64,000 nucleotides of DNA, from contig DJJA01000003.1 in the NCBI GenBank assembly GCA_002433895.1, forward strand, positions 107,185 through 171,184, read 5' to 3'. The notes under the pieces are model-generated. The model saw nothing but the letters and a program-made list of their open reading frames with translations. It ran no database searches and was not told the DNA's origin. Both the position numbers and the translations under genes were made by a program. Shown here one piece after another: positions 5,806 through 52,654 of the stretch; position 1 is the stretch's first letter, and the number at the start of each line of letters is the position of its first letter. The stretch comes from Candidatus Gottesmanbacteria bacterium UBA6580 (GTDB lineage Bacteria; Patescibacteriota; Microgenomatia; UBA10105; UBA927).

Positions 5806-5915
5806 TTACTTCACTATAGCACACAAAACACAGCCGCCTCGACCGCTTGACAAGCTGAGGCTGGTTGTTTAGTATGTGGACAACTTATCCACAGACTGCT
5901 CTTTACCTCATAAAT

Positions 5916-14319: not shown

Positions 14320-14323
14320 ATAA

Positions 14324-15652
14324 TTAAACGGATGTTTTTCCGAAAATTTCCTGGGCGAGCTTTTCGCGCGTGAGCACCTTTTCACTTTTAGCGATTATTT
14401 CGAGTACGGGAACGACCGTGCCATTGAGGGTGATCTGTACCCTGGTAAAAGTAAATCTTCCCCGCGGGTCTTCTATTTCTACAAAGTACACGCCGCTTGT
14501 AAGTGGTGTTGACGCGGCAAATTGTCCGAGCTTGTTTGTTTTGAGCGCGCGCATGGGCACCCCCTCACCGTTTGTGACAGTAACAAGAATGCCGGGCAAC
14601 AAGTTGCCTACGTCATCTTTGACAAGGCCAGTGATCACATTTGGCGCGTTCGTCAGACGCGGTAGCCCCACCTTTACCGCCCCCTCCTCAGTTGTAATGA
14701 CATTAACTGTGCCGCGGGACGACCCCGCAAGGCTATCTTCCCGAGGGGTCGTTGCCCGGGGTGATACTGGCTGTGGCGGAGCCTCCCTGCGTTTGAGTGC
14801 GACCAACTGCTCTTCTGTGTTTGTTTTTGCCGCAAGTGTTTCGGTGAGTTGTTTTTGTAATTCAAGTACCCGCTCTTCCGTCATGGTTTTTGTCGCAAGC
14901 TTTGCTTCGAGAGCCGCGAGGGTTTCCTCAAGCTGTTTAATTTTCTGCTGTGTTTCCTCACTTACCACGCTAGAGGTGGTCTGAGGCGCAGGTGGCGGTG
15001 GCGCCTCGACGTGTTGACCGGTAACCGATGGAACCGGACGCGCAACGGGTGGAGCGGGAGTTGGATGATGTGCGGGTGCTGCTACATGTTTTGGACGGAA
15101 CAAAGACATGATTTCATCGATAAGTGTTACGTGTGGTTTCTGTGCATGCACAGTCATTGGAGAAGTGGGGTGGGGCGTTTGCTGGGCGCCGGCATTTCCC
15201 GGCTGAAACAAGTCAGAAAGCGCGCTTTTCGGGTTCGTTTGTGGTGCTGTTGCGGGTTTTGCCGCTGGTGTCTGCGGAGGGATGACAGGAGCCGCTGACA
15301 CAGCGGCAGCAGGTTTGTTGCCCTGAGGCGTTGGCGGTGCCTTGGCGGCGGGAGGCGTCATTGATGCTTCATGTGACCAAATGTATTGTGTGGGGTTATA
15401 GATGCTTTTAAAGAAAGAAAAAACCCACACATCCATCGGCCGCTCCTCGATTGGGATAAAAGCAAACCCTATACCTAAAAAAGCGAACGCACCGGTAAGC
15501 GGCCAGGTGATAATAAAAGGGAGGGGTAGTTTATACGCGATAAACGCGAGAATTGCTCCGGCACACAAGTAGCCGAATTGTTTCAGCGTCATGTCGCCGA
15601 TCAGCCGAAACTGAAACGTCGTAACATTTTGAGGGACAGGATGTTGTTCCAT
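14324..15652 (-). CDS. PrgI/VirB3-like membrane protein fused to Pro/Ala-rich linker, coiled coil and C-terminal carboxypeptidase-regulatory-like / Cna-B-like beta-sandwich domain
   Basis: N-terminus NVTTFQFRLIGDMTLKQFGYLCAGAILAFIAYKLPLPFIITWP with two TM helices resembles PrgI-family (VirB3 analogue) proteins; then a PAAKAPPTPQ-type low-complexity stretch, a heptad coiled coil (QQKIKQLEETLAALEAKLATKT...), and C-terminal GILVTVTNGEGVPMRALKTNKLGQFAAS..GVYFVEIEDPRGRFTF typical of CarbopepD_reg-like folds. Confidence 0.55.
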   Translation of the reverse strand: MEQHPVPQNVTTFQFRLIGDMTLKQFGYLCAGAILAFIAYKLPLPFIITWPLTGAFAFLGIGFAFIPIEERPMDVWVFSFFKSIYNPTQYIWSHEASMTPPAAKAPPTPQGNKPAAAVSAAPVIPPQTPAAKPATAPQTNPKSALSDLFQPGNAGAQQTPHPTSPMTVHAQKPHVTLIDEIMSLFRPKHVAAPAHHPTPAPPVARPVPSVTGQHVEAPPPPAPQTTSSVVSEETQQKIKQLEETLAALEAKLATKTMTEERVLELQKQLTETLAAKTNTEEQLVALKRREAPPQPVSPRATTPREDSLAGSSRGTVNVITTEEGAVKVGLPRLTNAPNVITGLVKDDVGNLLPGILVTVTNGEGVPMRALKTNKLGQFAASTPLTSGVYFVEIEDPRGRFTFTRVQITLNGTVVPVLEIIAKSEKVLTREKLAQEIFGKTSV

Positions 15653-15774
15653 GTACCCTTCATTGTAGAGGGAAAAATTAAGGTGTTCAATAGCACAAAG
15701 CGCATCAGGACCGTGAAAACTCCACTTTTAGAGTTTTCACGAATGAAAAAAATAATCTATGATAAGATAGCCTC

Positions 15775-17961
15775 ATGAGTGTGTCACCAGTGACGTTGTT
15801 GGAAATTCAAAACGCTAGGGAGAGCGAGGAGTCGCCGCTTGCGATGGAGCAGGTGTTTGCTGCGCTGGGAAGCGGTGGAGCCCACCAGAATATATTCCAG
15901 CGCCTTTTTGGCGGCGGCCATACGCAAGCATCACACTTTAGTCTGGAGATAGTCTCGGTGAATAGTCGGATCCATTTTTTTCTTGCGGCTCCCGATTCAC
16001 TCCGTGAGTATCTCGAGAGCCAGCTCACCGCGCAGTACCCAAGGTTGCTTATTACGAAAATCCCCGACTACATGGAGCATTTTCTTTCGCTTCCACACGC
16101 GTCGGGGCAACTAGTGTACGGGAGCAGCTTTTATTTACCTCTCAAGACATACAAGGACATAAAAGACCTGGATATTCTTTCGGGCGTCGTTGGGCAATTC
16201 GCGAAGTTACAGCCTCAGGAGGCTGTAGCGCTCCAGATACGAGTAGCTCCCGCAGGGAGCGGGTGGCAGCGGTCGATTGCCTCCATGATTGCCAAAGGAG
16301 TGCCCGACCCGAACTCAACCGTTGGGCGCACCAAACAGCACCCGCACGCCAGACTTATGGAAACAAAGATGAACCAGGTGGGTTTTTCAGCGGCGATAAG
16401 GCTTGTCGCTGTTGCGCCAACAGAAGGCCGGGCCAAGCAGGTGCTCCACACGTCCGCAGGTACATTCGGGGTGTACACATCGGGCGAAGGAAACAGCCTG
16501 GTGTTGTCTGAGCCGCAATTTTGGCAAAAAAAGAAATTTGAGCAGTCGTTTTTACTTCGGGGAGATTATTTGCGTCCCCGGTTCCAGGTGTTGGGAGCAA
16601 GCGAGCTATCGTCATTGTGGCATCCGCCCGGCATGGGACTTTCCATGATCAAAAATATTCATTGGGGGGCACGTCTTTTGGGGGAGGCGCCCGCTAACTT
16701 GCCGATTGCGACTGATGATCAGGAAGAAAAACGAAAAATTAATTTTTTTGCAAAAACGGAATACAAAAATACCCCCACCACGTTCGGTGTTAAAAAAGAA
16801 GACCGGAGAAAACACCTCTATGTTATCGGAAAAACTGGCACCGGTAAGTCAACAATGATCGCGAACATGGCAATAAATGATATGAAAAACGGCGAAGGTA
16901 TGGCAGTTATCGATCCACACGGAGATCTCTGTGACATTTTATTACATTATGTACCGTCAAACAGGATAAATGATGTTGCTTACTTGGATCCGTCTGATAT
17001 CGATAACCCGTTTTATTTAAACCCCCTTGAGGTAAAAAATCCGGCGTACCGCGAGTTGATAGCTTCGGGGATCGTGTCGATATTTTATAAGTTGTATCAC
17101 ATGAGTTGGGGGCCGCGGCTTGAGTATATTCTCCGAAACACAATTTTGACCCTAACGCATGTTCCGCAGTCGACATTTCTTGATATACCCGAGCTGCTCA
17201 CCAACGAACGGTTCCGGGAAAAGGTGGTAGAAAAACTTGATGACCGGGTACTCAAAAATTTTTGGCTCAACGAGTTTAATAAGTTGTCTCCACAGCTTAA
17301 AAGCGAGTCGATATCACCAATTCTTAACAAGGTTGGACAATTTCTTTCGTCAAAAACTATTCGAAACATCGTGGGACATCCCACTTCTACCATTGATTTG
17401 GAACACATGATGAACGAGGGGAAGATTGTGATCGTCAATCTTTCTCAGGGGAAGCTCGGGGAAGATAGCAGCGCGTTGTTGGGGGCGATGATTATTACAA
17501 AAATGCAGCTTGCCGCCATGAATAGGGTATATAAATCAGAGGAAGACAGACGGGATTTTTATCTCTATGTCGATGAGTTTCAGAATTTTGCCACGCAGTC
17601 GTTTATAAAGATATTGTCTGAGGCGCGAAAGTACCGTCTAAATCTTTCGCTTGCGAACCAGTATATAGGTCAAATTGATGAAGACGTACAGAAGGCGATT
17701 TTCGGTAACGCAGGCTCAATCGTGTCATTTGCGGTGGGAGCCGCAGACGCGAGGCTTCTGGGGCGTGAATTCGGCGAAAAGTATGAAGAGTCAGAGTTGG
17801 TGGGCCTCGGAAATTTTCAGATAGTCCTAAAGTTATCTATAGACAACCAAACGTCAACGCCGTTTTCGGCAGTTACGTTACCGTTGCCGAAGAGCCGCAA
17901 TGAACATCGTGAGACAGTTATCCGTGTTTCTCGCGAACGGTACACAAAAAAGGTACAATAG
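15775..17961 (+). CDS. type IV coupling-protein-like ATPase (TraG/VirD4/TraD family, TraG-D_C type), no N-terminal TM
   Basis: Walker A YVIGKTGTGKSTMIAN followed by AVIDPHGDL; Walker B / TraG-D_C-like LYVDEFQNFA; divergently transcribed from the virB4 operon; no hydrophobic helices at the N-terminus. Confidence 0.6.
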   Translation: MSVSPVTLLEIQNARESEESPLAMEQVFAALGSGGAHQNIFQRLFGGGHTQASHFSLEIVSVNSRIHFFLAAPDSLREYLESQLTAQYPRLLITKIPDYMEHFLSLPHASGQLVYGSSFYLPLKTYKDIKDLDILSGVVGQFAKLQPQEAVALQIRVAPAGSGWQRSIASMIAKGVPDPNSTVGRTKQHPHARLMETKMNQVGFSAAIRLVAVAPTEGRAKQVLHTSAGTFGVYTSGEGNSLVLSEPQFWQKKKFEQSFLLRGDYLRPRFQVLGASELSSLWHPPGMGLSMIKNIHWGARLLGEAPANLPIATDDQEEKRKINFFAKTEYKNTPTTFGVKKEDRRKHLYVIGKTGTGKSTMIANMAINDMKNGEGMAVIDPHGDLCDILLHYVPSNRINDVAYLDPSDIDNPFYLNPLEVKNPAYRELIASGIVSIFYKLYHMSWGPRLEYILRNTILTLTHVPQSTFLDIPELLTNERFREKVVEKLDDRVLKNFWLNEFNKLSPQLKSESISPILNKVGQFLSSKTIRNIVGHPTSTIDLEHMMNEGKIVIVNLSQGKLGEDSSALLGAMIITKMQLAAMNRVYKSEEDRRDFYLYVDEFQNFATQSFIKILSEARKYRLNLSLANQYIGQIDEDVQKAIFGNAGSIVSFAVGAADARLLGREFGEKYEESELVGLGNFQIVLKLSIDNQTSTPFSAVTLPLPKSRNEHRETVIRVSRERYTKKVQ

Positions 17962-40234: not shown

Positions 40235-40690
40235 ATGAAGATAGTAAACAAAAAAGCATTGTTTGATTACCAAATCCTCGATCGGTTAGAGGCAGGAGTG
40301 AGCCTCACTGGAGCCGAGGTAAAGTCGTTGCGCAGCGGTCACGCGAAGCTCGACGGTTCATTTGTGCGTATTATCGGTACGGAAGCGTACCTTATCAACG
40401 CACAGATATTTCCCTATACCTACGCCAGTCCGCCAGCTGGCGGAGGAACCTATGACCCAAAGCGCACACGGAAGCTACTGTTTCACCGGAAAGAGCTCGT
40501 AAGCCTAAAAAGCAAGATAGATGGCGCTAATTTGACCCTTATTCCTCTGAGCTGGTATACTAAAGGCCCCTTTGTGAAGCTCGAAGTAGGACTTGCCAGA
40601 GGCAAGAAACAATACGAAAAACGGGAGAAAATGCGTCAGGATGTGCAAAAAAGAGAGCTTGAGCGGGACTTCCGGGGGAAAGTGAAATAG
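40235..40690 (+). CDS. smpB: SsrA-binding protein
   Basis: MKIVNKKALFDYQILDRLEAGVSLTGAEVKSLR ... LVSLKSKI; canonical SmpB. Confidence 0.9.
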   Translation: MKIVNKKALFDYQILDRLEAGVSLTGAEVKSLRSGHAKLDGSFVRIIGTEAYLINAQIFPYTYASPPAGGGTYDPKRTRKLLFHRKELVSLKSKIDGANLTLIPLSWYTKGPFVKLEVGLARGKKQYEKREKMRQDVQKRELERDFRGKVK

Positions 40691-41107
40691 GGGATGCATC
40701 AGATCGACGATGCGGGCACGTTAAAAAACAGCAAGCCGGCGATGACAAAAGAGCCGCAAAAATTATTGTCAATTATAATTGCTAATACACTTAGCGAGCT
40801 TGAGGAAAAGTACGCCTACCTTGTAGAACGGCTTATGCTCAAGCGATCACAGTCAGCTTACGCTTACGCGTACGCCAACTAAGATCCATCCCGATTATTC
40901 TTTCGTCTGGTGAGGATTTTTGGGGTGTAAACAAAGCCAGGCCGTCAGGTTACTCATGATCGGGAGTAACCGGAGTATTATTTCGATCAACCCTCTAGAA
41001 AAGTATTTGTCCGCTTTTTTCTTTTCTAGAGAACTAAACGGACTACGCTTGTAGAAGTTTTTGATGTACTCCTTCGGACCCGGGCTCAACACCCGGCATC
41101 TCCACCC
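40690..41107 (+). ncRNA. ssrA: transfer-messenger RNA (ssrA)
   Basis: 5' GGGGATGCATCAGATCGACGATGCGGG resembles the E. coli tmRNA 5' end GGGGCUGAUUCUGGAUUCGACGGG; 3' end TCGGACCCGGGCTCAACACCCGGCATCTCCACCCA gives a T-arm (CCGGG/CTCAACA/CCCGG) and an acceptor strand CATCTCC pairing with GGGGATG including a G3:U70 wobble, discriminator A; a GCCGCAAAAA element about 65 nt from the 5' end as in E. coli; begins at the last nt of the smpB stop codon. Confidence 0.75.
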
Positions 41108-41180
41108 ATTCGCGTCCGCCACCTGGCGGATCGGGCAAGCAATGCTGCCTCCTTGTACAATGGTATAAGGAGGCTTTATT

Positions 41181-41867
41181 GTGGCGGTTTTGGACTATAT
41201 CTTCCCGAAACGGTGCCTCAGTTGCGGCAGCGTGGGCGCGTATTTTTGTGCCAGATGCAGACCCGGAGTTCGTCATATTTTACCCACTGAAGCAATATGT
41301 CCCGTGTGTGGGCGGCCGGCAATTGATGGCAAGACACACCCGCGGTGCCGGTCCCGCTACAGTTTGGACGGCCTTACGAGTTTTTTCCGTTACGATGGTA
41401 TCGTAAAGAAAGCGGTCACCTCACTGAAATACCGTGGTGTTTTTGATCTTGCCGCAGCGTTCATTGCGCTTATTTCTTCTGGATATAGCGGGTTGCCGGG
41501 CATTTCCGGTAGGGATGATGTTGTGCTCGTACCTATACCACTTCATACACACCGGCAGAGAACGCGCGGGTTTAATCAGGCAGAGATTTTGGGAAGTACG
41601 CTCGCGCAACGATTGCACATAAAAATGCATACGGGTATACTCAGGCGCATTGCTGATACACCGCCACAGGTTTCTATGCAAGAGCGGAGCGCCCGGTTTA
41701 TAAACCTCCGGCGGGCATTTACGTGTGAAAGCGATGGTTTAGAGCGTTACAACAGTATAATATTGTTAGACGACGTCTACACAACCGGGGCGACCATGCG
41801 ATCTGCGGGACATACGCTAAAGCGGGCAGGCGCGCGTTTTGTGTGGGCGGTGACTATGGCACGATAA
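41181..41867 (+). CDS. comF: ComF family protein (phosphoribosyltransferase domain)
   Basis: GTG start with AAGGAGG 8 nt upstream; N-terminal Zn-finger CLSCGS..CARCR; C-terminal PRTase motif ILLDDVYTTGATM. Confidence 0.8.
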   Translation: MAVLDYIFPKRCLSCGSVGAYFCARCRPGVRHILPTEAICPVCGRPAIDGKTHPRCRSRYSLDGLTSFFRYDGIVKKAVTSLKYRGVFDLAAAFIALISSGYSGLPGISGRDDVVLVPIPLHTHRQRTRGFNQAEILGSTLAQRLHIKMHTGILRRIADTPPQVSMQERSARFINLRRAFTCESDGLERYNSIILLDDVYTTGATMRSAGHTLKRAGARFVWAVTMAR

Positions 41868-42569: not shown

Positions 42570-42660
42570 GGAGGAGTCGCATAGCCCGGTCCATTGCGAG
42601 GGTTTGCTAAACCCTTGAGCCGATGAGGCTCGCGTGGGTTCGAATCCCACCTCCTCCGCC
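42570..42660 (+). tRNA. tRNA-Ser(GCU)
   Basis: Acceptor GGAGGAG/CTCCTCC, discriminator G, anticodon stem AGGGT/ACCCT with loop TTGCTAA, long variable arm, T-loop GGTTCGAATCC. Confidence 0.85.
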
Positions 42661-42682
42661 GGGTTTTACATGGTGTGTATTT

Positions 42683-42769
42683 GGAAGGGTCGCATAGTGG
42701 ACTAGTGCACTTGTCTTGAAAACAAGCGTCGGCGCAAGCTGACCGTGGGTTCGAATCCCACCCCTTCCG
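42683..42769 (+). tRNA. tRNA-Ser(UGA)
   Basis: Acceptor GGAAGGG/CCCTTCC, anticodon stem CTTGT/ACAAG with loop CTTGAAA, long variable arm, T-loop GGTTCGAATCC. Confidence 0.85.
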
Positions 42770-42843
42770 CTCGAAGAGAGGCCTTGTCTCCTTTGCGTGA
42801 GGGTTGTAGGAAATGGATAATACGAGGGGTTGTTGCAGAGACA

Positions 42844-42928
42844 GGAGAGGTCGCATAGTGGCCTAGTGCAGAAGTTTACTAAACTTCCGTATCGCAAGAT
42901 ACCGTGGGTTCAAATCCCACCCTCTCCG
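42844..42928 (+). tRNA. Ser-type (class II) tRNA with apparent ACU anticodon
   Basis: Acceptor GGAGAGG/CCTCTCC, discriminator G, long variable hairpin GTATCGCAAGATAC, T-loop GGTTCAAATCC; anticodon stem GAAGT/ACTTC encloses loop TTACTAA, i.e. A34-C35-U36. Confidence 0.65.
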
Positions 42929-42951
42929 CTGATACATACGCGAAGCAGGAG

Positions 42952-44259
42952 CTATCTCCATGGGTACAACCACGTCAGGCTGGTGGCGATTGTGTGCCCC
43001 ACGCGGTTAAACGCCGGAGCAGTGGTATCCGGAAACGCGACTTCATCCTCGGTATATCGCCGCGCTTTAAACAGAAAGTTAATCGGGAAGGCTCCGCTCA
43101 TTTTTGTGGTAAACGGGCTGATGATATCCCAAACGATTTCTTTTTCCGGTGTTACTTCAAATATGTGTCCCCGGGGGCCATCGGTGATAAGTACGTTCCC
43201 GTTGGGAAGCTGTTGTGCCCCGCCGACCAGCGGTCCATAGAAAGCGAGCTTATCCATCACACCCGGCCCTCCGTCAAAAGTCCATGTGACGGTGTTGGTT
43301 TTGGGGTCTATCACTACGACGCGGCTGCCGTATAACGGTATGGGTGACGGGGTTCGGGTGAATCCATTGTCAAATACCATAATAGCACCGTTCGGAAGCA
43401 CGCTTGGATCATGTTGGGTGTTTAGTATTCCTTTCGGTGAACGCCATATTATTTCCCCATCCCGCTTCCGTATAAGTATGACGGTGTTTATGGACCGTAT
43501 GCTCACAAGATATGCCTCTTCTCCATCGATTGGATTTTCCGGAACGTGGCTTATGCCGTTAATATACGTCCAACCCGAGCGGGATAGCGATTGGTCAATG
43601 ATATCTATGGCAGGACGTAGGTGTTCGTGCGCGTGCCAACTCCACACAGTGTTTCCGGCGGGGTCCAGCTCTATTATTTCGTCGGACCATATATCACCCT
43701 TGAGTTCCGTACCAGGAATCCCCCCACGGATTTCCTGTGCAATAGAGCGTGGCAGTTTTTCCCAGCTCGCAAAGGCAATGTTGCCGTTTTGTAAAACCGC
43801 TACATCGTGGTGTGCGGATTCATGAACTATTTCCCGTACTACCCGGGAACTCCAATCAAGCTCTTGAATAACGCCGGTGTTGCCTCCGCCGGGATACATC
43901 TCAGAATACCGGGGAGCCTCCATAGCGACGAGAAGGTGATTATTAGGCAATAGTTGGGCGGATAACACTTGGCGGTCAGTAGTCCAAGAGTGGACTGGCC
44001 GGCCAAGCATATCGGTAAGATATACAGCGCCCTTGTTTTTTGCGTCGGCATTCAGCGCGTTATTATATGGCGCAATGAGCGTATAACCAGCGGAGACACG
44101 GTCAGGGTTGCGGATTGCCGGAGTGTGAAAAATGCTCACGGGAGCTATATACGGCCGTACGATAAAAGCATATATGCCTATATATGCAGCGGCCATGACG
44201 ATAAGGATGGTGAGCGGGCGATTTTTCCGCATGAAAAAGATAAATACTTCATTTATCAT
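42952..44259 (-). CDS. membrane-anchored beta-propeller protein, arylsulfotransferase (ASST)-like
   Basis: N-terminal TM; repeated hydrophobic beta-strand motifs; HESAHHDVAVLQNGNI resembles the His-rich ASST active-site region; weak call. Confidence 0.35.
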   Translation of the reverse strand: MINEVFIFFMRKNRPLTILIVMAAAYIGIYAFIVRPYIAPVSIFHTPAIRNPDRVSAGYTLIAPYNNALNADAKNKGAVYLTDMLGRPVHSWTTDRQVLSAQLLPNNHLLVAMEAPRYSEMYPGGGNTGVIQELDWSSRVVREIVHESAHHDVAVLQNGNIAFASWEKLPRSIAQEIRGGIPGTELKGDIWSDEIIELDPAGNTVWSWHAHEHLRPAIDIIDQSLSRSGWTYINGISHVPENPIDGEEAYLVSIRSINTVILIRKRDGEIIWRSPKGILNTQHDPSVLPNGAIMVFDNGFTRTPSPIPLYGSRVVVIDPKTNTVTWTFDGGPGVMDKLAFYGPLVGGAQQLPNGNVLITDGPRGHIFEVTPEKEIVWDIISPFTTKMSGAFPINFLFKARRYTEDEVAFPDTTAPAFNRVGHTIATSLTWLYPWR

Positions 44260-44313
44260 ACTGCGTCCTAACCAGAACGCAAATTATGAATAGGCCCTCT
44301 TTTTTATGTGTTG

Positions 44314-45981
44314 TTAATAATGAAACAGCCGTTGTTGTTGTTCCGGGGTTGGCAGAGGAAGGGATTCGGCCGTGTTTTGTGGGTATGATAAGGTTCGGCC
44401 GTTGTTAAACTTGTGGTGGATTTGTTTGAGATACCACACGACAAAAGGGTGTTTGTCTGCGACATTTGTGGTGTCCCATGGATCATTGATGACGTCGTAC
44501 AATTCAATATCCGATGATGAAGTGCCGTCGAGTGACCGTAGGTACATTTTCCAACGCGAAGTGGTGATTGCTCTTTGACGTAACGGCACCGAAGCATTTT
44601 TTGGGTTAAAAGAGTTGTAATATTCTGATATGACCGGCCGAAAAAGCCGTAAGGTTGGCAGCCCCATAACGGCGTCCGAGAGATCCTGTCCCTCAAGCGA
44701 CCGGATGTTCGGTAAACCCAAGAGGCCGACAATTGTGGGATATATGTCAATTATTCCTACTGGTTGGTGAATAACTTTCGGATGTACCTGAGGAACGGAT
44801 AGTATGAGCGGGACGCGAAGCACTCCGCCATAAAGTGACCGGTGCATAAGATCACCGTGCTCCATGAATTCTTCACCGTGATCGGAAGTAATGATAAGGA
44901 TAGTGTCATGCGAAAGCATCGGCTGTAATTGTGCGAGAATATCCGATAGTTGGGTGTCGAGCTGAAAAATTAACTCATCATATAGCGCCTTCATGTACGC
45001 GACATCCTGCGGATTATCTTTTTGTTGGGTATAAAAATATTCGGCTTCCAGACAGTAGTTTTTGCAGTCGCCGCTTGTTAAATCGTTATACAGCCGGCGC
45101 GCGGTTTCATAGTCATCTGTGGCCATATACTTTGAAAAAAGAGATGAAAGATTTTGTGTCATGGGAGGGTTCTGACGGAAAAATCGTTTTGTAAACTCCA
45201 TAAACTCAGGAGTGAAGCTAAAGTATTCGTCTTTTGTCACCGGAATTTTTTGACTACTGTCATTACTGAAGTGGAAGGGCCGAGTTCCAGGTAGGTATGG
45301 TTGGTGGACATAATAGGTGTGGAGAAAAAGAAAAGTCGGTTCACCTTTTTTTCGATTTTCATCCAGTTTATCTATTCCTCTTTTCCAATTATCGAGCCCG
45401 TATTCCCGTTCGTAGTCATATTCGGCATCAATATAGGTAAATCCACGGGCAAAGCCCCTGTTGAGCGGAAGATATTCGCTATCAATAGGTCCGTAGTATA
45501 GCGTAGCGTATCCGGCATTTTTTAGTGTTTCGGCAAGCGTAACACTGGATTGGGGAAGCTGAGAAGTCCCCGCTTCTAGCATGCCGTGGGTAGAAGGATA
45601 TTGTGAAGTGAAAAGGGACATATGGCTAGGTAGGGTGAAATAGCTTTGTGAACTTGCATTGGTAAAGTAGGTATTGCGTTTTGCAAACCCACAAAGGTTC
45701 GGCGCGGTATTTTTCGGGTATCCATAGCAGGGCAGGTGTAAGCCGGATAATGTGTCGAGGGATATGACGACGACATTACAGCGGTCACAAATAGGGGCGC
45801 GAAGCACTTTTTTCTTTAGGGATGCAGGAAGCGCCGTTAGTGTAAGCGCAATGAGGGTTGTGCAAACTACTCCGGTGGCAATCAGGGCGATGAGGCGGAG
45901 GCGTGACCACTTGGTCGTAATGTGTTTTTTCTTTTTTACGGGCATAATGGCAGTGTAGGAGTAGCGTGTGGTGGCTGTCAA
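44314..45981 (-). CDS. sulfatase-family (alkaline-phosphatase superfamily) hydrolase/transferase, membrane-anchored, Thr at nucleophile position
   Basis: N-terminal TM; CNVVVISLDTLSGLHLPCYGY metal-binding start; SQSYFTLPSHMSLFTSQYP aligns to the sulfatase C-T-P-S-R-x-S-L-L-T-G-R-Y-P signature with T for C/S and H for R; C-terminal ILIITSDHGEEF. Confidence 0.7.
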   Translation of the reverse strand: MTATTRYSYTAIMPVKKKKHITTKWSRLRLIALIATGVVCTTLIALTLTALPASLKKKVLRAPICDRCNVVVISLDTLSGLHLPCYGYPKNTAPNLCGFAKRNTYFTNASSQSYFTLPSHMSLFTSQYPSTHGMLEAGTSQLPQSSVTLAETLKNAGYATLYYGPIDSEYLPLNRGFARGFTYIDAEYDYEREYGLDNWKRGIDKLDENRKKGEPTFLFLHTYYVHQPYLPGTRPFHFSNDSSQKIPVTKDEYFSFTPEFMEFTKRFFRQNPPMTQNLSSLFSKYMATDDYETARRLYNDLTSGDCKNYCLEAEYFYTQQKDNPQDVAYMKALYDELIFQLDTQLSDILAQLQPMLSHDTILIITSDHGEEFMEHGDLMHRSLYGGVLRVPLILSVPQVHPKVIHQPVGIIDIYPTIVGLLGLPNIRSLEGQDLSDAVMGLPTLRLFRPVISEYYNSFNPKNASVPLRQRAITTSRWKMYLRSLDGTSSSDIELYDVINDPWDTTNVADKHPFVVWYLKQIHHKFNNGRTLSYPQNTAESLPLPTPEQQQRLFHY

Positions 45982-46200
45982 CGAAGGGTGTTCGGTTTCC
46001 CGCGCCGCAAAATTTTGTCTCCCGTTTTAAAAAGACCGCCTGCGTTTTTGGAATAATCCAGCATGACCGTTACTAGACATGGCGGTATGCCCCGCCGTGA
46101 GAAGTACGGCGCGGATTATTACCGTATTTTCCGCTCTTCTGTCATCCAATGTATATGTAGGCTGCATTGCAATTTCGGTTCATCTCGGTATACTGAATAT

Positions 46201-46716
46201 ATGAAGACCGCAGCGCAATCAGAGCCGAAAGACGAAGAAGTATATGTGATGTGGAGCTCCCCTTCGCGGCTGTTTAAGAAACGGGACCGGGAATTTTTTG
46301 TTAATATTCTCGCGATCGTATTTTTGTTATCCGTTATTCTTGTTTTTGTCCGGGAATTTGTGCTTATCGCGACGGTATTGTCGATTGTGTTTTTAATCTA
46401 TGTACTCTCCACCGTTCCGCCTGAAGATGTAAAACACCGCATCACTAACCTTGGGATAGAGAGCGCTGGGCATTTTTATCGGTGGGAAGAGTTTGCCGAT
46501 TTTTGGTTTGACGAACAATGGGGACAAAAAATGGCGGTACTCAGGCCATTTATGTCGCCGAGGATTATTATACTTTTGGGTGATCAAAAGCCGGAAAAAA
46601 TCAGAGAATATATCGCGCAGCATATCCCGTTCCGTGAAGAGCCGGATCGGACTTGGGTGGACAATGCCGCACGATGGATATCGGAAAAAATCCCGCTGGA
46701 AAAGCCCCAAGCCTAG
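46201..46716 (+). CDS. hypothetical two-TM membrane protein
   Basis: ATG at 46201 (MKTAAQSEPK); two hydrophobic helices (FFVNILAIVFLLSVILVF, LIATVLSIVFLIYVLS). Confidence 0.3.
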   Translation: MKTAAQSEPKDEEVYVMWSSPSRLFKKRDREFFVNILAIVFLLSVILVFVREFVLIATVLSIVFLIYVLSTVPPEDVKHRITNLGIESAGHFYRWEEFADFWFDEQWGQKMAVLRPFMSPRIIILLGDQKPEKIREYIAQHIPFREEPDRTWVDNAARWISEKIPLEKPQA

Positions 46717-46756
46717 CCACGATACGCTCTATTGGTGTACAATACGCTAGTATTTC

Positions 46757-46828
46757 GCGCCCATAGTTCAATGGATAGAATAGGAGCTTGCGGAGCTTCT
46801 GATACAGGTTCGACTCCTGTTGGGCGTA
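46757..46828 (+). tRNA. tRNA-Arg(GCG) (anticodon assignment tentative)
   Basis: Acceptor GCGCCCA/TGGGCGT (G1:U72), D-arm GTTCAATGGATAGAAT, anticodon stem GGAGC/GCTTC (one G:U) with loop TTGCGGA, T-arm ACAGG TTCGACT CCTGT, discriminator A; 72 nt. Confidence 0.65.
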
Positions 46829-46835
46829 CAAGAAT

Positions 46836-47249
46836 ATGATAATTGCTCTCTGCGGCAGCCTTGCTTTTCACAAAGAAATGCGTCTCGCACAGCGGGAGTT
46901 AACGTCGTTCGGTCACCGCGTATTTGTTCCCAAAAGCCTCGATTTGATAGAAAAAGAAGGATTTGTTAAACCTACAACGGTGGATGAACGGCTTCGTGCG
47001 GAAAAAAAATACGATTTCATCCGTGAACACTTCCGTAAAATCACAAAAGCAGATGCGATACTCGTTATAAACCCAACGCATCACGGGGTGAAAGGATACA
47101 TCGGCGGCAATACCTTTTTAGAGATGGGAATCGCGTTTTATTTGGGAAAAACAATTTATCTTATCAATCCGGTACCAAAGATGGACTATGAATTAGAGCT
47201 AGCCGCCATGCACCCTATTGTTCTTGACGGTGATCTCCGCGCTCTCTGA
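46836..47249 (+). CDS. nucleoside 2-deoxyribosyltransferase-like protein (YtoQ/NDT-superfamily), paralog A
   Basis: 137 aa; IALCGSLAFHKEM ... GYIGGNTFLEMGIAFYLGKTIYLI matches the NDT flavodoxin-like fold with catalytic Glu in the TFLEMG loop. Confidence 0.5.
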   Translation: MIIALCGSLAFHKEMRLAQRELTSFGHRVFVPKSLDLIEKEGFVKPTTVDERLRAEKKYDFIREHFRKITKADAILVINPTHHGVKGYIGGNTFLEMGIAFYLGKTIYLINPVPKMDYELELAAMHPIVLDGDLRAL

Positions 47250-47296
47250 TTTTTTCAGATCGGCGAGCTTTTGAAGTATAATTGGTGGGTGGTATT

Positions 47297-47387
47297 GGAG
47301 AGGTGCAGGGAATGGCTATCCGGACAGTCTCGAAAACTGTTATCTCCGTCAGGGGATTTGTGGGTTCGAGTCCCACCCTCTCCGCCA
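47297..47387 (+). tRNA. tRNA-Ser(CGA)
   Basis: Acceptor GGAGAGG/CCTCTCC, discriminator G then CCA, anticodon stem ACAGT/ACTGT with loop CTCGAAA, long variable arm, T-loop GGTTCGAGTCC. Confidence 0.8.
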
Positions 47388-47400
47388 GAAAAGAGGAACT

Positions 47401-47817
47401 ATGACCATTACAATTTGCGGAAGTATGCAGTTTCATAAAGAAATGGCGTTTATGCGTGACGAGTTGTTGTCGCGCGGGTTTACCGTGTATGTGCCGGGCG
47501 AACTCGATGATATTCATAAAAATGAATCATATATGGATAGCGATGAAGAGCGGATCACCGCAAAAATTGAATACAATTTCATCCGTGAGCATTTCAAAAA
47601 AATCGAGATAGCGGACGCTATCCTTATCCTGAATTATGAAAAAAAGGGGATCCCCGGATATATCGGTGGTAATACATTTTTAGAGATGGGGTACGCGTTT
47701 GGATTAGGAAAAAAAGTATATTTGCTGTATCCCGTTCCCGACATGGATTACAAGACTGAAATGCACGCAATACAGCCGATTGTTATTAACGGTGACTTGT
47801 CCCAAATTACCCCTTAA
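47401..47817 (+). CDS. nucleoside 2-deoxyribosyltransferase-like protein, paralog B
   Basis: 138 aa; ITICGSMQFHKEM ... GYIGGNTFLEMGYAFGLGKKVYLL; about 55 percent identical by eye to paralog A. Confidence 0.5.
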   Translation: MTITICGSMQFHKEMAFMRDELLSRGFTVYVPGELDDIHKNESYMDSDEERITAKIEYNFIREHFKKIEIADAILILNYEKKGIPGYIGGNTFLEMGYAFGLGKKVYLLYPVPDMDYKTEMHAIQPIVINGDLSQITP

Positions 47818-49895
47818 GGCTCTACATCTTTTCCGTCTGTTTTAGTTGCGTTGATGTATGTTGTCACGATGTTTCCCTGCGCATCTTTCAGCGTGAGGGT
47901 GCCGCCGTTTAGTCCTTTAAGCGTATTATTTTTTAATTTTTCGACCCCGGAAGTGCCATCATAGGTTGTTGATGAGTAAAGCCATGTGCAGCATTCGGCG
48001 TAAAAACTGTTTTGGACCACGCCTATTTCAACGATGTCGCTTGTATTGGTGATACGCGTTATCGCCGGAGTAAAGGTGATGCCATCAAAGGCGGCGAGCG
48101 TGACTACTTCCGGATCCGCCGGCTTCCGGGGAATAACGCCGATGGCTACCGGTTTATCAGGCAACGAATTTCCCACGATGCGTTGGTGAAGCGCAACTTT
48201 GATGAGCTTTCCGTTAAATACGTTCTCCAGTAGCGTCAGCAGTTCTGTTTCTTTTGCTTTGTTTATTCGCCCGGGCGTCACCCATACCATAACTCCGGGT
48301 ACGTCTTCTGCGAGTGGCTTTTTGTCGCTGCTGATAATTGATCCCCTGCGCGCGGGAGAAACCCGTGTTTCAAGGCGAGAGGTGTCATCAAGTCCCGGTA
48401 AAAGCAGAGACCAGTCCCATGGAATACGCCACCTATTGTCTTCCTTCACAAAAGGCACATCGGTGTCGACGGTGAATGTCCCGAGTTGCCGGGTAAAGTA
48501 GGTAAACGTCATTGGCACAAATTGTGGCGATTGGCGACTGGTTATTACCTTCCCTTTTTGTTCGATGTTTATAAATTCAATTTCTCCGTCTGCCATAATG
48601 CTATGAGCAAATCTACGGAACCCGTCTCTTGTTGCGGTGCTCCGGAAATGTTTTGTGGTGTCTTCATACACGTCCGCAAACAGGAAATGTTCTGTGTTGT
48701 AGACAAACTGGTTAATGACCGATTGTGGTGAGGGAAATAATATGGGGATAGATGAAATGACATTTGCCGTCAGTAGTACGCCGTATACAACGGCTCCAAC
48801 ACGCTGGGGCAGCTTTGTGATGATGGCGCCGCCGGTAATATAGAGAAGCGGGAGAATGACGACAAGATACCGCACCCAAAAGGGGACTACAGCGTAGAGT
48901 ACGAGGGTAACAAAAAGTATGCCGATAACCACCCCCCAACCCGCGTCTGTTGCTTTGTCGCGAAGCTTCGTGAAGCCAGCGGCGACTGCAGAAAAAAATA
49001 GTATCCCCCATGTGGGGCTCCACTCAGGCGCGATTTCCCAACGGTGTGAAAAAATATTTTGATATCTGCCGGTAATAAGGGTAACGATATCGCTTCCCCA
49101 GGTGGGTGCCAGATTTGCGTTGCGGTAGAAGCTGATGGTCCATTTTTGTATTTTTATCCAGTCAAGCAGGGTATGCCCATGGGTGAAATAGCCGGTGTAC
49201 GGAACGAGATACCCAATAAGTCCGCCGACAAAAAGCATAACGATAAGACGTGGCGAGCGGGTAGAGACATGGATATACCAGATGGCGGCAGCCATGATAA
49301 CGGGTGTGAGTACCGGTAATTTTGTGGCGGAAAATAATCCGAGCGCCACACCGGAAGCGAGCGCCAACGCCGGCTGGTGACGCTTTGTGCGGCCGGCGCA
49401 TATGATGAGTGACAGAAACAGTACGAGGAGACCCGCCTGTAACGCATCCATCATGGTAAGGGCAAATTGGTTGGTTATCAGTGGGTCGGTTGCAAGAAGC
49501 ACAGTGAGCATAAGCGCGGGGACTGTTTTTTTGATCAGCAGAAGCGCCAAAAAGTACGTGCCGATAAGAAGAGAGACCGTGGTGATAAGGCCGTAGAGGT
49601 ACCCGTTATTCAGCGATATGATGCTGAGGCCGATAAGGTATTTTCCTAGCGGGGGCATTTCAGCGTTTGTGCTGGTAGGGTCTCCTCCGCTGATAAGCCG
49701 GTACCCTTCATAGAGATATAATCCGTCGTCGCCGATCGTGCGAAGCGAAAGCGGGAGTTTCCATTGGGACTGTTCGTACCTATCTTTCCAATATGCTTCG
49801 TCAAACTGCGAAAAAAACAGCGCGCGATGCGCATAAACGACCAAACTGAGATACGAGACAAGAAGTACAAGAAATAGAATAAAGGCACGTCGCAT
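47814..49895 (-). CDS. GT-C fold membrane glycosyltransferase (ArnT/PMT, GT39/GT83-like) with C-terminal extracytoplasmic domain
   Basis: FDEAYW (DE motif in the first loop) and PPLGKYLIGLSI characteristic of PMT_2/ArnT-type enzymes; about 11 TM helices, then a 270-aa soluble C-terminal domain. Confidence 0.55.
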   Translation of the reverse strand: MRRAFILFLVLLVSYLSLVVYAHRALFFSQFDEAYWKDRYEQSQWKLPLSLRTIGDDGLYLYEGYRLISGGDPTSTNAEMPPLGKYLIGLSIISLNNGYLYGLITTVSLLIGTYFLALLLIKKTVPALMLTVLLATDPLITNQFALTMMDALQAGLLVLFLSLIICAGRTKRHQPALALASGVALGLFSATKLPVLTPVIMAAAIWYIHVSTRSPRLIVMLFVGGLIGYLVPYTGYFTHGHTLLDWIKIQKWTISFYRNANLAPTWGSDIVTLITGRYQNIFSHRWEIAPEWSPTWGILFFSAVAAGFTKLRDKATDAGWGVVIGILFVTLVLYAVVPFWVRYLVVILPLLYITGGAIITKLPQRVGAVVYGVLLTANVISSIPILFPSPQSVINQFVYNTEHFLFADVYEDTTKHFRSTATRDGFRRFAHSIMADGEIEFINIEQKGKVITSRQSPQFVPMTFTYFTRQLGTFTVDTDVPFVKEDNRWRIPWDWSLLLPGLDDTSRLETRVSPARRGSIISSDKKPLAEDVPGVMVWVTPGRINKAKETELLTLLENVFNGKLIKVALHQRIVGNSLPDKPVAIGVIPRKPADPEVVTLAAFDGITFTPAITRITNTSDIVEIGVVQNSFYAECCTWLYSSTTYDGTSGVEKLKNNTLKGLNGGTLTLKDAQGNIVTTYINATKTDGKDVEP

Positions 49896-50054
49896 ACTGA
49901 TAACCCAATTCTAGCAGAGAGCAGGCATAGGCGGTATAATAAGGCTTGTACATCGCTTATTGATGTATGCATTCGGTCGTGGGAGTGGAGGATGCACAAC
50001 TCGCGACACGAAAATGGCAATATCAGGAAAAACCACACGGTTTTGTCCGGTAAG

Positions 50055-50126
50055 GCTCTCGTAGTTCAATGGATAGAATGCGGCCCTCCGAAGGCTGTGA
50101 TGGCAGTTCGACTCTGCCCGGGAGTA
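50055..50126 (+). tRNA. tRNA-Arg(CCG)
   Basis: Acceptor GCTCTCG/CGGGAGT, same D-arm as the 46757 tRNA, anticodon stem CGGCC/GGCTG with loop CTCCGAA, T-arm GGCAG TTCGACT CTGCC, discriminator A. Confidence 0.8.
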
Positions 50127-50148
50127 CTCAGGCTGATATACTATATTT

Positions 50149-50745
50149 ATGAAGGATCAAAAGAGGCTAACGAACCTTATCTATGAAGCGGCAAACGTCA
50201 AACGGATGCTCCGGACCGGTTGGCAGCGCCTTGGTGATAATGAAGAAGGCGTTGGCGAGCACTCGTTTATGACTGCGGTTATTGCGTATTTACTTGCCCG
50301 GGAAATAAATGCCGTGGGTGACGCTTCGCGGAACGTATCGATGGAAAAAATTATGTTAATGAGTATATTCCATGATTTTCATGAGGGGCGGACCGGTGAG
50401 ATGGATAAGGTGGCGAAACTGTATATGACCCGGCATGAAGACAAAGCAAACGAAGATATTTTTAAAGGCGTAGATGACGATCTGCTGACATTGTTAAGCG
50501 AATATGAGGCACGAAAATCACTTGATGCCCAAGTAGTATATGAAGCAAATGTGATTGCGTTCGGAGTGGAGTGCAAAATTTTGATGGAAAAAGGAAATAC
50601 GCATGCTAAGGAGTGGATGGATGCAAATTCCAAAAGAGTGCGGCTACCTGAGTCTATTGAACTTATGACCTCTCTTGCAGTCACCGACTCGCAGGATTGG
50701 TGGAAAGATATCCGTGAAGCTATCCACGAAGAATTTGCTAAGTGA
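50149..50745 (+). CDS. HD-domain phosphohydrolase (YfbR-like 5'-deoxynucleotidase family)
   Basis: EHSFMTAVIAYLLA ... IFHDFHEGRTGEMDKV carries the H..HD metal-binding signature. Confidence 0.6.
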   Translation: MKDQKRLTNLIYEAANVKRMLRTGWQRLGDNEEGVGEHSFMTAVIAYLLAREINAVGDASRNVSMEKIMLMSIFHDFHEGRTGEMDKVAKLYMTRHEDKANEDIFKGVDDDLLTLLSEYEARKSLDAQVVYEANVIAFGVECKILMEKGNTHAKEWMDANSKRVRLPESIELMTSLAVTDSQDWWKDIREAIHEEFAK

Positions 50746-51666
50746 TTATTCCCCCTCCTTAAATAACACCGCCGCCATTTTTTTTGTAATCCGGCTGCTT
50801 GTTGCAAATACTACCCCGACAATAATGAGTGCTGCTCCGAGAAGGTAGGTAAGTGTAAGGCGTTCGCCCAGGATAACCGCGTTTATCGCGACAGCTATCA
50901 CCAGTTGTATGTATTCTTTCAGCGATGCTGTTGAGGCAGAAACGTGTTGTACTCCCCACTGAAACAGGAAAAAAGTAATAATAGTAATTCCGACCGCCGC
51001 GTACAACAACACGCCGGTATATGAAGGGATAGTGAGAGCAGGTGAAAGGAGTGTTTGGCCGGCAAGAAGTGCGGCGGCGGTTGCCGCAATCGTGACGGTA
51101 AAAATATTGACTGATGTGGACAGAATAGGAGAAAAATCCCCGTGTAAGAGTATGCGCCGTGAAAAAATAATATACATTGTCCAGCACAGAAGACTTCCAA
51201 CCATAAATATGTTACCCAGCAAATTCCCTGACGTAATATTTCCTTTGTCTATCATTGGTAACAGCACGATACAGAGTGCGCCGATAAGACCGATACATAT
51301 GCCCGCCAGTTTATTTTTCTGGATGGGCTCGTTTAAAAATAATGGAGAGAAAAGCGCTACAGTGATGGGAATTGTTGTGCCAAGTATGCTCCCCGTATTT
51401 GCCGTAGTAAGCGAGAGTCCTAAATAATAAAACAAAATATTTCCCGTGTTGAATAATCCAAGCGGTAGCAGCGCGCGCCAAAAACCTTTTGGTTTATTGG
51501 TACGGAGAAAAAAAGGGAGAATTATCAGTGATGCCAAAATAAACCGGTGGCTGGCGGCAACAAATGGTGGTACCTCCATGAAAAGCAATTTGGAAACCGA
51601 TCCGGCACTTGCCCATAAACCAGCGGAAACAAGGATAGCCAGCAGTGCTTTGGTGTGAATTGACAT
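50746..51666 (-). CDS. EamA/DMT-superfamily transporter
   Basis: 306 aa, 10 hydrophobic helices in two 5-TM halves, typical EamA duplication. Confidence 0.7.
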   Translation of the reverse strand: MSIHTKALLAILVSAGLWASAGSVSKLLFMEVPPFVAASHRFILASLIILPFFLRTNKPKGFWRALLPLGLFNTGNILFYYLGLSLTTANTGSILGTTIPITVALFSPLFLNEPIQKNKLAGICIGLIGALCIVLLPMIDKGNITSGNLLGNIFMVGSLLCWTMYIIFSRRILLHGDFSPILSTSVNIFTVTIAATAAALLAGQTLLSPALTIPSYTGVLLYAAVGITIITFFLFQWGVQHVSASTASLKEYIQLVIAVAINAVILGERLTLTYLLGAALIIVGVVFATSSRITKKMAAVLFKEGE

Positions 51667-51710
51667 GAGAAGTATTATATTCCTCCCCGTGTCATGAAAC
51701 TACTTCAGCT

Positions 51711-52490
51711 TCACTTTTTGGCAGATTTTCTCGTTTGTTCTTTCATCCAGGTGAGCAGCTTGCCGTGCGTGTCATACGGAAACGTTGTCCGTTTCCAGAA
51801 CTCAAGTGTGTTGCTCTTACGAACAGCGGGAGAGTTAAGGTGTGCCATTATCCCCGGCGCTTCCATGGGATCATGCGCGACGATGACGTCTTCTGCGGCA
51901 AATCCATTGGCTGCCACGTCCCATCCGCAGGTGAGTATCATGGTGCGCGCAAGATGTGACGCTGTGGTAAACACTGCTACCCGTCGCAGCTGCTGCTGAT
52001 TGACGATAATTGATAGGCTTTCCGCGTTTTTGGATGTATTTGCTGCCTGTTCATTGATAATTGCACCATCCGGTACGGTCACGCGGTTATTTGATATTTC
52101 AGCGACATATTTCCGGAATACCCAGTCATATGAACCGTTTATTCGTTTGCCTTCGCCATTTAACATTATGACCTGTTTCGGCGTTTTTCCTTCGAGCGCC
52201 CACTCCACATACTTGATGGCAGCTGCTTTCAGCCGTTTTTTGGTGATGCCATTCGGGAACGGTAGTCCATTTTTTCCATACGATGGACCGCCGTCAAATA
52301 CCGCAATCGCGTCAAAGGGAATGTTGCCACTGTTATCGGCGCAATGTACCGGTTGGCCAAAGGCCGCCGTTATCACACGGTGGGTCGTGTCAAAATTAAT
52401 AGCCGGCGGAGCCAACAGCGCGATTGCTCCGGTCAGAAGCAGCGCTTTTCTCCCGGTGAGTCTTTTTTGTCTACCATGTTCTTTGCGCAT
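51711..52490 (-). CDS. DUF218 (YdcF/ElyC/SanA-like) protein with signal anchor
   Basis: NTSKNAESLSIIVNQQQLRRVAVFTTASHLARTMI matches the conserved DUF218 core. Confidence 0.5.
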   Translation of the reverse strand: MRKEHGRQKRLTGRKALLLTGAIALLAPPAINFDTTHRVITAAFGQPVHCADNSGNIPFDAIAVFDGGPSYGKNGLPFPNGITKKRLKAAAIKYVEWALEGKTPKQVIMLNGEGKRINGSYDWVFRKYVAEISNNRVTVPDGAIINEQAANTSKNAESLSIIVNQQQLRRVAVFTTASHLARTMILTCGWDVAANGFAAEDVIVAHDPMEAPGIMAHLNSPAVRKSNTLEFWKRTTFPYDTHGKLLTWMKEQTRKSAKK

Positions 52491-52569
52491 ACGTTTGTTG
52501 TGAGAAAAATTACAATGGTGGCTATTATAGCATCAGATCAAGCTCTATAAATGATATAATTGCCATATT

Positions 52570-52654
52570 GGAGGAGTGGCCCAGCGGCTACGGCATACGC
52601 TTGGAAAGCGTACGGGAGCAATCCCTCGCAGGTTCGAGTCCTGTCTCCTCCGCA
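52570..52654 (+). tRNA. tRNA-Ser(GGA)
   Basis: Acceptor GGAGGAG/CTCCTCC, discriminator G, anticodon stem TACGC/GCGTA with loop TTGGAAA, long variable arm, T-loop GGTTCGAGTCC. Confidence 0.8.

Follow-up and report, generated by a model that had tools for sequence, protein, structure and literature searches.

The transfer-messenger RNA (tmRNA) encoded by ssrA belongs to a very well known RNA family, Rfam RF00023, in whose E. coli member, SsrA, the coding sequence reportedly starts at the tip of one stem-loop and finishes at the tip of a second, as Felden and colleagues are said to have described in 1997. Known tags are between 8 and 35 residues long (reviews PMC8012679, PMC3968760) and their usual terminal residue is hydrophobic (2014 tmRNA survey, PMC4131195); of the 100 strongest C-terminal 5-mer degrons of E. 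coli, 91% close with Ala-Ala, and once Asp takes the place of its terminal Ala the E. coli tag is no longer recognised directly by ClpX (PMC10862746). The tag of Mycoplasma pneumoniae, which has been called unusually long at 27 residues, is degraded mainly by Lon in cells without ClpXP (PMC8403727). In Carsonella ruddii, 5' maturation of the tmRNA would deprive the smpB mRNA of its stop codon and so turn it into a substrate of the very protein it encodes, and an overlap between smpB and ssrA was reported in that organism and nowhere else in the 2014 survey (PMC4131195). Here we analyse an ssrA gene in the window, by which we mean the whole stretch of 64,000 nucleotides from Candidatus Gottesmanbacteria bacterium UBA6580 that was studied (GenBank assembly GCA_002433895.1, contig DJJA01000003.1, positions 107,185 to 171,184 of the forward strand). 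The gene is a lineage-specific variant of its family, marked by degeneracy of the T-loop, by a tag frame that is expanded and structured, by a tag with a heptad helix and a non-canonical terminus, and by a tight coupling to smpB; we found no description of such a variant in a literature search on tmRNA in Microgenomates and Patescibacteria, whose 15 top results made no mention of tmRNA or ssrA.

The RNA shares with E. coli SsrA and RF00023 the acceptor stem with its G3:U70 pair, the T-arm, helix 2, a first pseudoknot (PK1), an AUAA-type element, an alanine resume codon near position 90, a hairpin resembling helix 5 at the end of the open reading frame (ORF), the pseudoknots PK2 to PK4 and a neighbouring smpB gene. 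It departs from E. coli SsrA in its T-loop (CUCAACA versus UUCGAAU), its single-G D-loop, its unencoded CCA, the length and end of its tag (33 residues ending in YAN versus 10 ending in LAA), an extra central hairpin in the ORF and a single stop codon.

With Mycoplasma tmRNA (Gur and Sauer 2008, PMC2570983; Burgos et al. 2021, PMC8403727) it has in common a reduced genome and a long tag. The tags of Gottesmanbacteria differ, however, in carrying a regular heptad helix, something that has not been described for the Mycoplasma tag, and many tags of the lineage end in Asn. At its own C-terminus the Mycoplasma tag has aromatic residues and alanine (YAFA), a close counterpart of the YAYA, AFA and AYA found here. 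As in Carsonella (Hudson, Lau and Williams 2014, PMC4131195), the smpB coding sequence enters ssrA; yet whereas the Carsonella SmpB is degenerate, lacking the central loop and the C-terminal tail, and intrudes into ssrA to a variable extent, SmpB is intact here and the overlap amounts to exactly one nucleotide (UAG/GGG), recurring in 15 genome and metagenome loci.

Identity and structure of the tmRNA

The region is a genuine tmRNA gene of a Gottesmanbacteria bacterium. Infernal with Rfam 15 returned RF00023 at window positions 40690-41107 on the plus strand, over the complete model (1-374 of 374), with 109.2 bits and an E-value of 8.9e-42, the gathering score being 47 bits; these are the very coordinates that an initial annotation had proposed for an unannotated tmRNA downstream of smpB. 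The smpB gene, directly upstream, encodes a protein of 151 residues (PF01668) that retains its basic C-terminal tail, and identical copies occur on many public contigs, including one NCBI contig of 1.23 Mb. A scan of one genome per species gave 49 loci with SmpB relatives, the closest of which (93% to about 70% identity) belong to Candidatus Gottesmanbacteria (Microgenomates, candidate phyla radiation), and when 40 of the related genome loci were scanned with Rfam, 30 had a tmRNA next to smpB. Several third-party annotation (TPA) metagenome-assembled genomes titled 'uncultured Gammaproteobacteria' or 'Saccharibacteria' (loci L002, L005, L007, L011, L012 and others in our numbering) encode an SmpB that is 70-82% identical to that of Gottesmanbacteria; these records are probably mislabelled, since they combine a Gottesmanbacteria-like SmpB with the same tmRNA and tag.

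A structure drawn by hand was scored on an alignment of 31 lineage sequences (MAFFT), with slid pairing partners as controls. Paired cells reached 88.7%, compared with 37-50% in the controls, and 38 pairs change on both sides. All seven pairs of the acceptor stem are formed in 31 of 31 relatives, one of them covarying and the others invariant, among them the alanine identity pair G3:U70; the canonical ends noted in the initial annotation do fold into an acceptor stem and a T-arm. The T stem is 100% paired with 5 of 5 pairs covarying, stem 2 of PK1 is 93% paired with 6 of 6 pairs covarying, and in each stem of PK2 five of six pairs change on both sides. For stem 1 of PK1 the computed figure of 58% paired is too low because MAFFT misaligns the 3' arm, and covariation is visible by eye (CGGC/GCCG, CGACU/AGUCG, CGAAUA/UAUUCG, CGAGUU/AACUCG). 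The acceptor stem, T-arm, helix 2, PK1 and PK2 are thus backed by covariation among the 31 relatives. Two loci, L011 (at about 3815-3840) and L025 (on the minus strand), carry insertions of about 25-45 nucleotides in PK1, between the 3' arms of its two stems.

In the T-loop a C replaces U54, so that the canonical U54-U55-C56 is lost, and the D-loop analogue has one G where GG is typical; the closest relatives have the same degenerate T-loop and single-G D-loop, and both canonical features are typical of the tmRNA family rather than strictly defining for it. The encoded 3' end reads ACCC, a discriminator A followed by CCC, without a full CCA.

The tag and its reading frame

Translation from the GCU codon at 40781 (tmRNA position 92) yields ANTLSELEEKYAYLVERLMLKRSQSAYAYAYAN, and the tag is the full 33 residues of this peptide. 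The codon is preceded at -6 to -3 by AUAA; AUAG or AUAA is strongly preferred upstream of the resume codon, where it sets the frame, at -6 to -3 in E. coli numbering (PMC4236655). No in-frame stop occurs between the GCU and 40880, and a frame of 33-35 codons with its stop in the same place is kept in 10 related genomes that show many synonymous differences, the ratio of nonsynonymous to synonymous differences (pN/pS) being 0.31 over the first 23 codons and 0.41 over codons 24-33. The frame begins at an alanine codon, without a start codon or a Shine-Dalgarno sequence, and is conserved as a peptide. Neither of the other two frames is a credible substitute: one reads UGC-UAA, the other runs for 15 codons with neither an alanine start nor conservation, and the GCU frame alone is conserved.

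The initial annotation had placed the resume codon at this GCU, about 92 nucleotides from the 5' end, and the AUAA register and the conserved frame agree, PK1 lying just upstream; it had also read the tag sequence and its atypical AYAYAYAN end correctly. The shorter tag that it also considered is not supported, given the AUAA register, the lack of an earlier stop, the conserved length of 33-35 codons and the 33-residue tag called by ARAGORN once its loops are made canonical (see below). The tag reads as an initial AN, a leucine-zipper-like amphipathic helix of about three heptads, a basic and polar linker (KRSQS) and an Ala/Tyr repeat ending in Asn.

A tag comparison among related genomes, which had been named as a check, was extended by a metagenome scan with the T-arm pattern of the lineage, which gave 92 contigs and 70 complete tmRNAs and, together with the genome set, 85 distinct tags. 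These range from 10 to 40 residues (median 31); they begin with Ala (79), Val (4) or Gly (2) and end in A (64), N (12), V (7) or C (2), so that endings other than Ala do recur, and A[YF]A occurs within the last 10 residues of 51 of the 85. A Val resume codon (GUA or GUC) is present in L015, L033, L037, L038 and L091, and ARAGORN concurs for L015, L037 and L038.

The long tags of the lineage, by which we mean those of at least 28 residues (n=51), have in common a heptad helix of the leucine-zipper kind, after which comes an aromatic and alanine-rich end. All five positions of the heptad pattern a-d-a-d-a are hydrophobic in 49% of them, compared with 1.3% of composition-matched shuffles, and at least four are in 80% compared with 21%; in the tag of the window these positions are L4, L7, Y11, L14 and L18. 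The helical hydrophobic moment is weakly above that of the shuffles (0.41 versus 0.35, standard deviation 0.10), and the count of a/d positions is the informative measure. In the AlphaFold prediction residues 4-31 form one helix (pLDDT 95.8), which is weak evidence because the prediction was made from a single sequence.

Rescue and recognition of the tag

While the identity, structure and tag frame of the RNA follow from the analysis above, the course of processing and rescue is taken here from established tmRNA biology. RNase P would cut at G1 (40690), the 3' trailer would be trimmed and the CCA completed, and the RNA, charged with alanine by virtue of G3:U70, would enter stalled ribosomes with SmpB. 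Translation would then resume at the GCU, its frame set by the upstream AUAA, and the ribosome would unwind three hairpins and append A-ANTLSELEEKYAYLVERLMLKRSQSAYAYAYAN, the C-terminal Ala/Tyr repeat of which may take the role of the usual YALAA degron, though it ends in Asn.

The tag ends in YAYAN, and thus lacks the C-terminal LAA or VAA with free carboxylate of an E. coli-like ClpXP degron; with its 33 residues and its aromatic and alanine-rich end AYAYAYAN it has the make-up of a long Mycoplasma-like tag. The initial annotation had also raised recognition by a different protease. Because E. coli ClpX depends on the C-terminal residues, because close relatives vary their endings and because the long Mycoplasma tag is read by Lon, we tentatively suggest, as a guess that falls only slightly short of an even chance, that recognition may be spread along the tag and carried out by an adaptor or by a protease of the Lon or FtsH type, in the manner of Mycoplasma, instead of depending on the binding of a terminal Ala-Ala carboxylate by ClpX of the E. 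coli type.

A serious rival, if on balance a doubtful one, is that the tag is an ordinary ClpXP degron, the ClpX of this lineage tolerating a terminal Asn, Val or Cys and the helix serving as an SspB-like adaptor site. It owes its seriousness to relatives whose tags end in ALAA (related tags end in FALAA, YALAA or PLAA), and it gains from the beginnings of the lineage tags, which are AN, AD or AK as in canonical tags, and from a two-part layout that resembles the succession of an SspB site and a ClpX site in the E. coli tag (PMC8403727). It sits less well with the loss of ClpX recognition in E. coli once the terminal Ala is replaced by Asp, with the dominance of terminal Ala-Ala among the strongest 5-mers there, and with the alternation of close relatives among the endings YAN, YVN, ATA and ASA, which suggests that the last residue is weakly constrained; moreover, clpX, clpP and sspB were not seen in a search that covered about 5% of the genome of roughly 1.2 Mb. 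No AAA+ protease gene is found among the ten largest ORFs of the window (Pfam), and a tblastn search with E. coli ClpP, ClpX, Lon and FtsH against the window and 147 related loci (1 Mb) gave a single weak AAA+ match and no protease gene; our literature searches on proteases of candidate-phyla-radiation bacteria yielded nothing usable.

Hairpins in the coding region

Positions 40772-40888 fold into three hairpins (A, B and C in Table 1) with a predicted energy of -37.8 kcal/mol and a z-score of -4.44 against dinucleotide shuffles (RNAfold). A stem of 4-8 contiguous pairs starting at -2 to 0 of the resume codon, as in hairpin A, is present in 25 of 31 lineage tmRNAs with differing sequences, and has 6-8 pairs in 20 of them. 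The helix scored in the segment of hairpin B is 91% paired and five of its pairs change on both sides. Among 11 close relatives the pairs of the coding region are 91% formed, versus 25-39% in slid controls, though the former figure is inflated by the fact that the fold came from a sequence within the set itself. Double-sided changes affect 10 pairs, versus 2.5 in shuffles. Given that both the pairing and the peptide are conserved, the coding region is therefore constrained as RNA and as peptide.

The same three results, namely the z-score, the pairing and the double-sided changes, are what lends substance to the view that RNA structure, for the most part, gave rise to the long central part of the tag as a side effect. 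On this view the insertion of a hairpin expanded the ORF, making for an mRNA-like domain that stays compact or resists nucleases, and as peptide nothing but the C-terminal alanine and aromatic residues would matter. The long tags of other sublineages likewise lie in long hairpins, and the first 13 codons are nearly free of synonymous change in the nine closest relatives. We nonetheless consider this unlikely: the heptad a/d pattern recurs across very different nucleotide sequences, at the excess over shuffles given above for five positions out of five, the complementarity of hairpin arms predicts no periodicity of three to four residues, and pN/pS is low in codons 1-23, although both constraints may act together.

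Failure of annotation and overlapping ORFs

The two programs that had been named as checks gave different answers: Infernal was positive, as described, whereas ARAGORN called only tRNAs in the window and no tmRNA in either the window or the excised gene. Across the lineage it recognised 6 of the 31 excised tmRNAs. When a canonical T-loop was swapped in silico, ARAGORN called the gene at the same coordinates and with the same 33-residue tag, and C54U together with a canonical D-loop likewise restored the call at these coordinates and with this tag. The gene is thus unannotated, and ARAGORN fails on it, because its T-loop and D-loop are degenerate. Other modifications, that is C54U alone, an added CCA, a canonical D-loop alone and deletion of the central hairpin, brought no rescue.

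The ORFs that cover the tmRNA had been taken as spurious in the initial annotation, and rightly so, since the 62-residue frame upstream of the tag is not conserved and the RNA helices covary; that annotation listed the 62-residue ORF on the plus strand correctly but counted two on the minus strand, where there are three of 70-77 residues as well as shorter ones. The 62-residue ORF consists of the tag frame joined to PK1, helix 2 and the acceptor stem, beginning at an ATG inside GGGGATG; because the resume codon lies at tmRNA positions 89-93 among relatives, shifting by distances that are not multiples of three, this upstream extension is not kept in frame. On public contigs of the same species either the 62-residue ORF or a 46-residue version is called, and one assembly has an 88-residue ORF on the minus strand over the tmRNA; the 62-residue product is present, unnamed, in a public protein collection, on 22 contigs (NCBI, JGI/IMG, ENA, Logan). 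The reading in which this ORF encodes a genuine small protein and the match to tmRNA is coincidental, as the gene callers' predictions and the deposition of its product from those 22 contigs might suggest, has practically no chance of being right in the face of a covariance match with an E-value of 9e-42 and covarying helices, of 29 initial codons that cross the acceptor stem, helix 2 and PK1, of an ATG-to-resume-codon distance that leaves only the tag part in frame among relatives, and of the 46-residue version being called instead in 3 of the 6 same-species contigs shown.

The smpB junction, a probable promoter and a terminator-like hairpin

The stop codon of smpB (TAG, 40688-40690) and G1 of the tmRNA share one G, and the same overlap of one nucleotide occurs in 6 of 25 genome loci with ssrA after smpB on the same strand (among them L001, L004, L005, L006 and L024) and, where the metagenome loci have an upstream ORF of 110 codons or more (67 loci), in 9 (among them L063, L069, L086, L107, L111, L127 and L141); gaps of 1-4 nucleotides are also common in relatives. 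It follows from the TAG/G overlap that cleavage by RNase P would leave the smpB mRNA without a stop codon, and this non-stop mRNA would become a substrate of tmRNA and SmpB, as the Carsonella logic has it. Genome compaction alone could also account for the tight spacing.

Within smpB lies a promoter-like site of the sigma-70 type with an extended -10 and 10 of 12 consensus matches. Of 16 relatives, 15-16 retain each hexamer at sites where synonymous change would be free to occur, and the codons of the spacer vary freely; in L010 a Thr to Asn change yields a perfect TATAAT. Because the hexamers are held at synonymous sites although ACT and TTG are rare codons in the window (14% of Thr and 17% of Leu, respectively), an ssrA promoter embedded in smpB is supported, and the site is likely, judging from the sequence, to be the ssrA promoter, with a leader of about 120 nucleotides. 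Transcription of ssrA would thus proceed from this site and also by read-through from smpB. Beyond the gene, the 3' arm of a terminator-like hairpin (window 41147-41183) holds AAGGAGG, eight bases 5' of the GTG start (41181) of a ComF-like gene, the ribosome-binding site of which would be sequestered in the terminator stem.

Table 1. Features at and around the ssrA locus, in window coordinates
Feature	Position	Strand	Description	Basis
smpB	40235..40690	+		ORF, Pfam PF01668
Promoter-like site in smpB	40532..40561	+	TTGACC, 18 nt, TGgTATACT (sigma-70-like)	scan
Overlapping ORFs, 70-77 aa	40560-40772, 40895-41122, 41043-41276	-		ORF list
ssrA	40690..41107	+	one-piece tmRNA, 418 nt	Rfam RF00023; helix pairing in 31 relatives
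Acceptor stem	40690-40696 with 41097-41103	+	GGGGAUG with CAUCUCC, 7 bp	sequence; relatives
Spurious 62-aa ORF	40694-40882	+	tag frame extended upstream	
D-loop analogue	40697-40705	+	CAUCAGAU, one G where GG is typical	sequence
PK1	40737..40771	+	just upstream of resume codon	
PK1 stem 1	40737-40740 with 40753-40756	+	CGGC with GCCG	sequence
PK1 stem 2	40743-40748 with 40766-40771	+	UGACAA with UUGUCA	sequence
AUAA tetramer	40775..40778	+	-6 to -3 of resume codon	sequence
Hairpin A	40779..40797	+	UUGCUAA / UUAGCGA, encloses resume codon	RNAfold
Tag frame	40781..40882	+	GCU resume codon, 33 codons, stop TAA 40880-40882	translation; frame conservation
Hairpin B	40798..40844	+	outer stem GCUUGAG / CUCAAGC, codons 7-22 (heptad helix)	fold; relatives
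Hairpin C	40845..40886	+	helix-5 equivalent, closed by GAUC/GAUC, degron codons, stop at 3' base	fold; relatives
PK2, PK3, PK4	40887..41043	+		Rfam alignment; coordinates
PK2	within 40887..41043	+	CAUCCC/GGGGUG and GUCUGG/CCAGGC	
PK3	within 40887..41043	+	GGUUACUC/GAGUAACC and GAUCG/CGAUC	sequence and Rfam alignment only
PK4	within 40887..41043	+	CUCUAGAAAAG/CUUUUCUAGAG and GUCCG/CGGAC	sequence and Rfam alignment only
T-arm	41080..41096	+	stem CCGGG/CCCGG, T-loop CUCAACA	covariation
Terminator-like hairpin	41147..41180	+	12 pairs, then TTTATT; about 40 nt past tmRNA 3' end	

Other genes of the window and of related loci

The ten largest ORFs of the window encode, by Pfam, a protein of the O-antigen ligase family (Wzy_C), a peptidase of family M23, TraG/VirD4-like ATPases, a protein with a PBP-dimerisation domain, a primase, BipA and a sulfatase, and two are without a Pfam match. 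Two large ATPases at 11748-17961 resemble those of type IV secretion or conjugation (TraG P-loop/AAA_10; HerA/TrwB-like domains), and an M23 peptidase protein at 9583-11742 adjoins them. All seven tRNA genes of the window (42570-52653) are for Ser or Arg. A tRNA-Ser with the anticodon ACU (A34) is encoded at 42844-42929 on the plus strand, beside tRNA-Ser(GCU) and tRNA-Ser(UGA), and recurs in about a dozen relatives (L004-L007, L015, L028, L063, L072, L080, L109, L127, L134); A34 is unusual in bacteria outside tRNA-Arg(ACG). A tRNA-Arg(GCG), at 46757-46829, is also present in 30 related loci, and tRNA-Arg(ACG) was not seen in 1 Mb of related loci. In L008, positions 5845-5959, downstream of ssrA, match the LOOT RNA (RF03000) with 66 bits.

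Implications

The explanation that in our judgment has a high probability overall is that of a functional one-piece ssrA with a promoter embedded in smpB and a two-part tag of 33 codons, missed by annotation on account of its degenerate loops. Several observations weigh against this picture or parts of it. The C54 T-loop and the missing GG of the D-loop deviate from canonical tmRNA, though the closest relatives do likewise; the hairpins of the ORF could explain part of the sequence conservation; AlphaFold, when given a single sequence, readily produces helices for short peptides; the compared tags lack phylogenetic independence; and the canonical ending ALAA is present in some related tags, so that ClpXP may well occur in the group.

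A more speculative idea, and a rather improbable one when its two parts are taken together, is that the heptad helix is a functional module and no passive spacer, either as a coiled coil that would oligomerise or sequester tagged polypeptides or as a site for docking to a lineage-specific adaptor or to membrane-bound FtsH, and that, separately, the overlap of smpB and ssrA makes the synthesis of SmpB self-limiting. If true, the helix module would be a different way for candidate-phyla-radiation bacteria to dispose of the products of ribosome rescue.

These findings bear, in the first place, on annotation, in that pipelines relying on ARAGORN would report the tmRNA as absent in this lineage and would deposit spurious proteins in its stead, whereas Infernal with Rfam recovers the genes. 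The recurrent TAG/G overlap and the promoter embedded in smpB make a testable case of self-regulation. The tags, for their part, reach 40 residues, with a regular heptad helix and with Asn or Cys at some of their termini, and the lineage, whose members have very small genomes, offers a naturally occurring range of degron variants, which could show how the products of ribosome rescue are recognised under a reduced repertoire of proteases and could supply orthogonal degradation tags.

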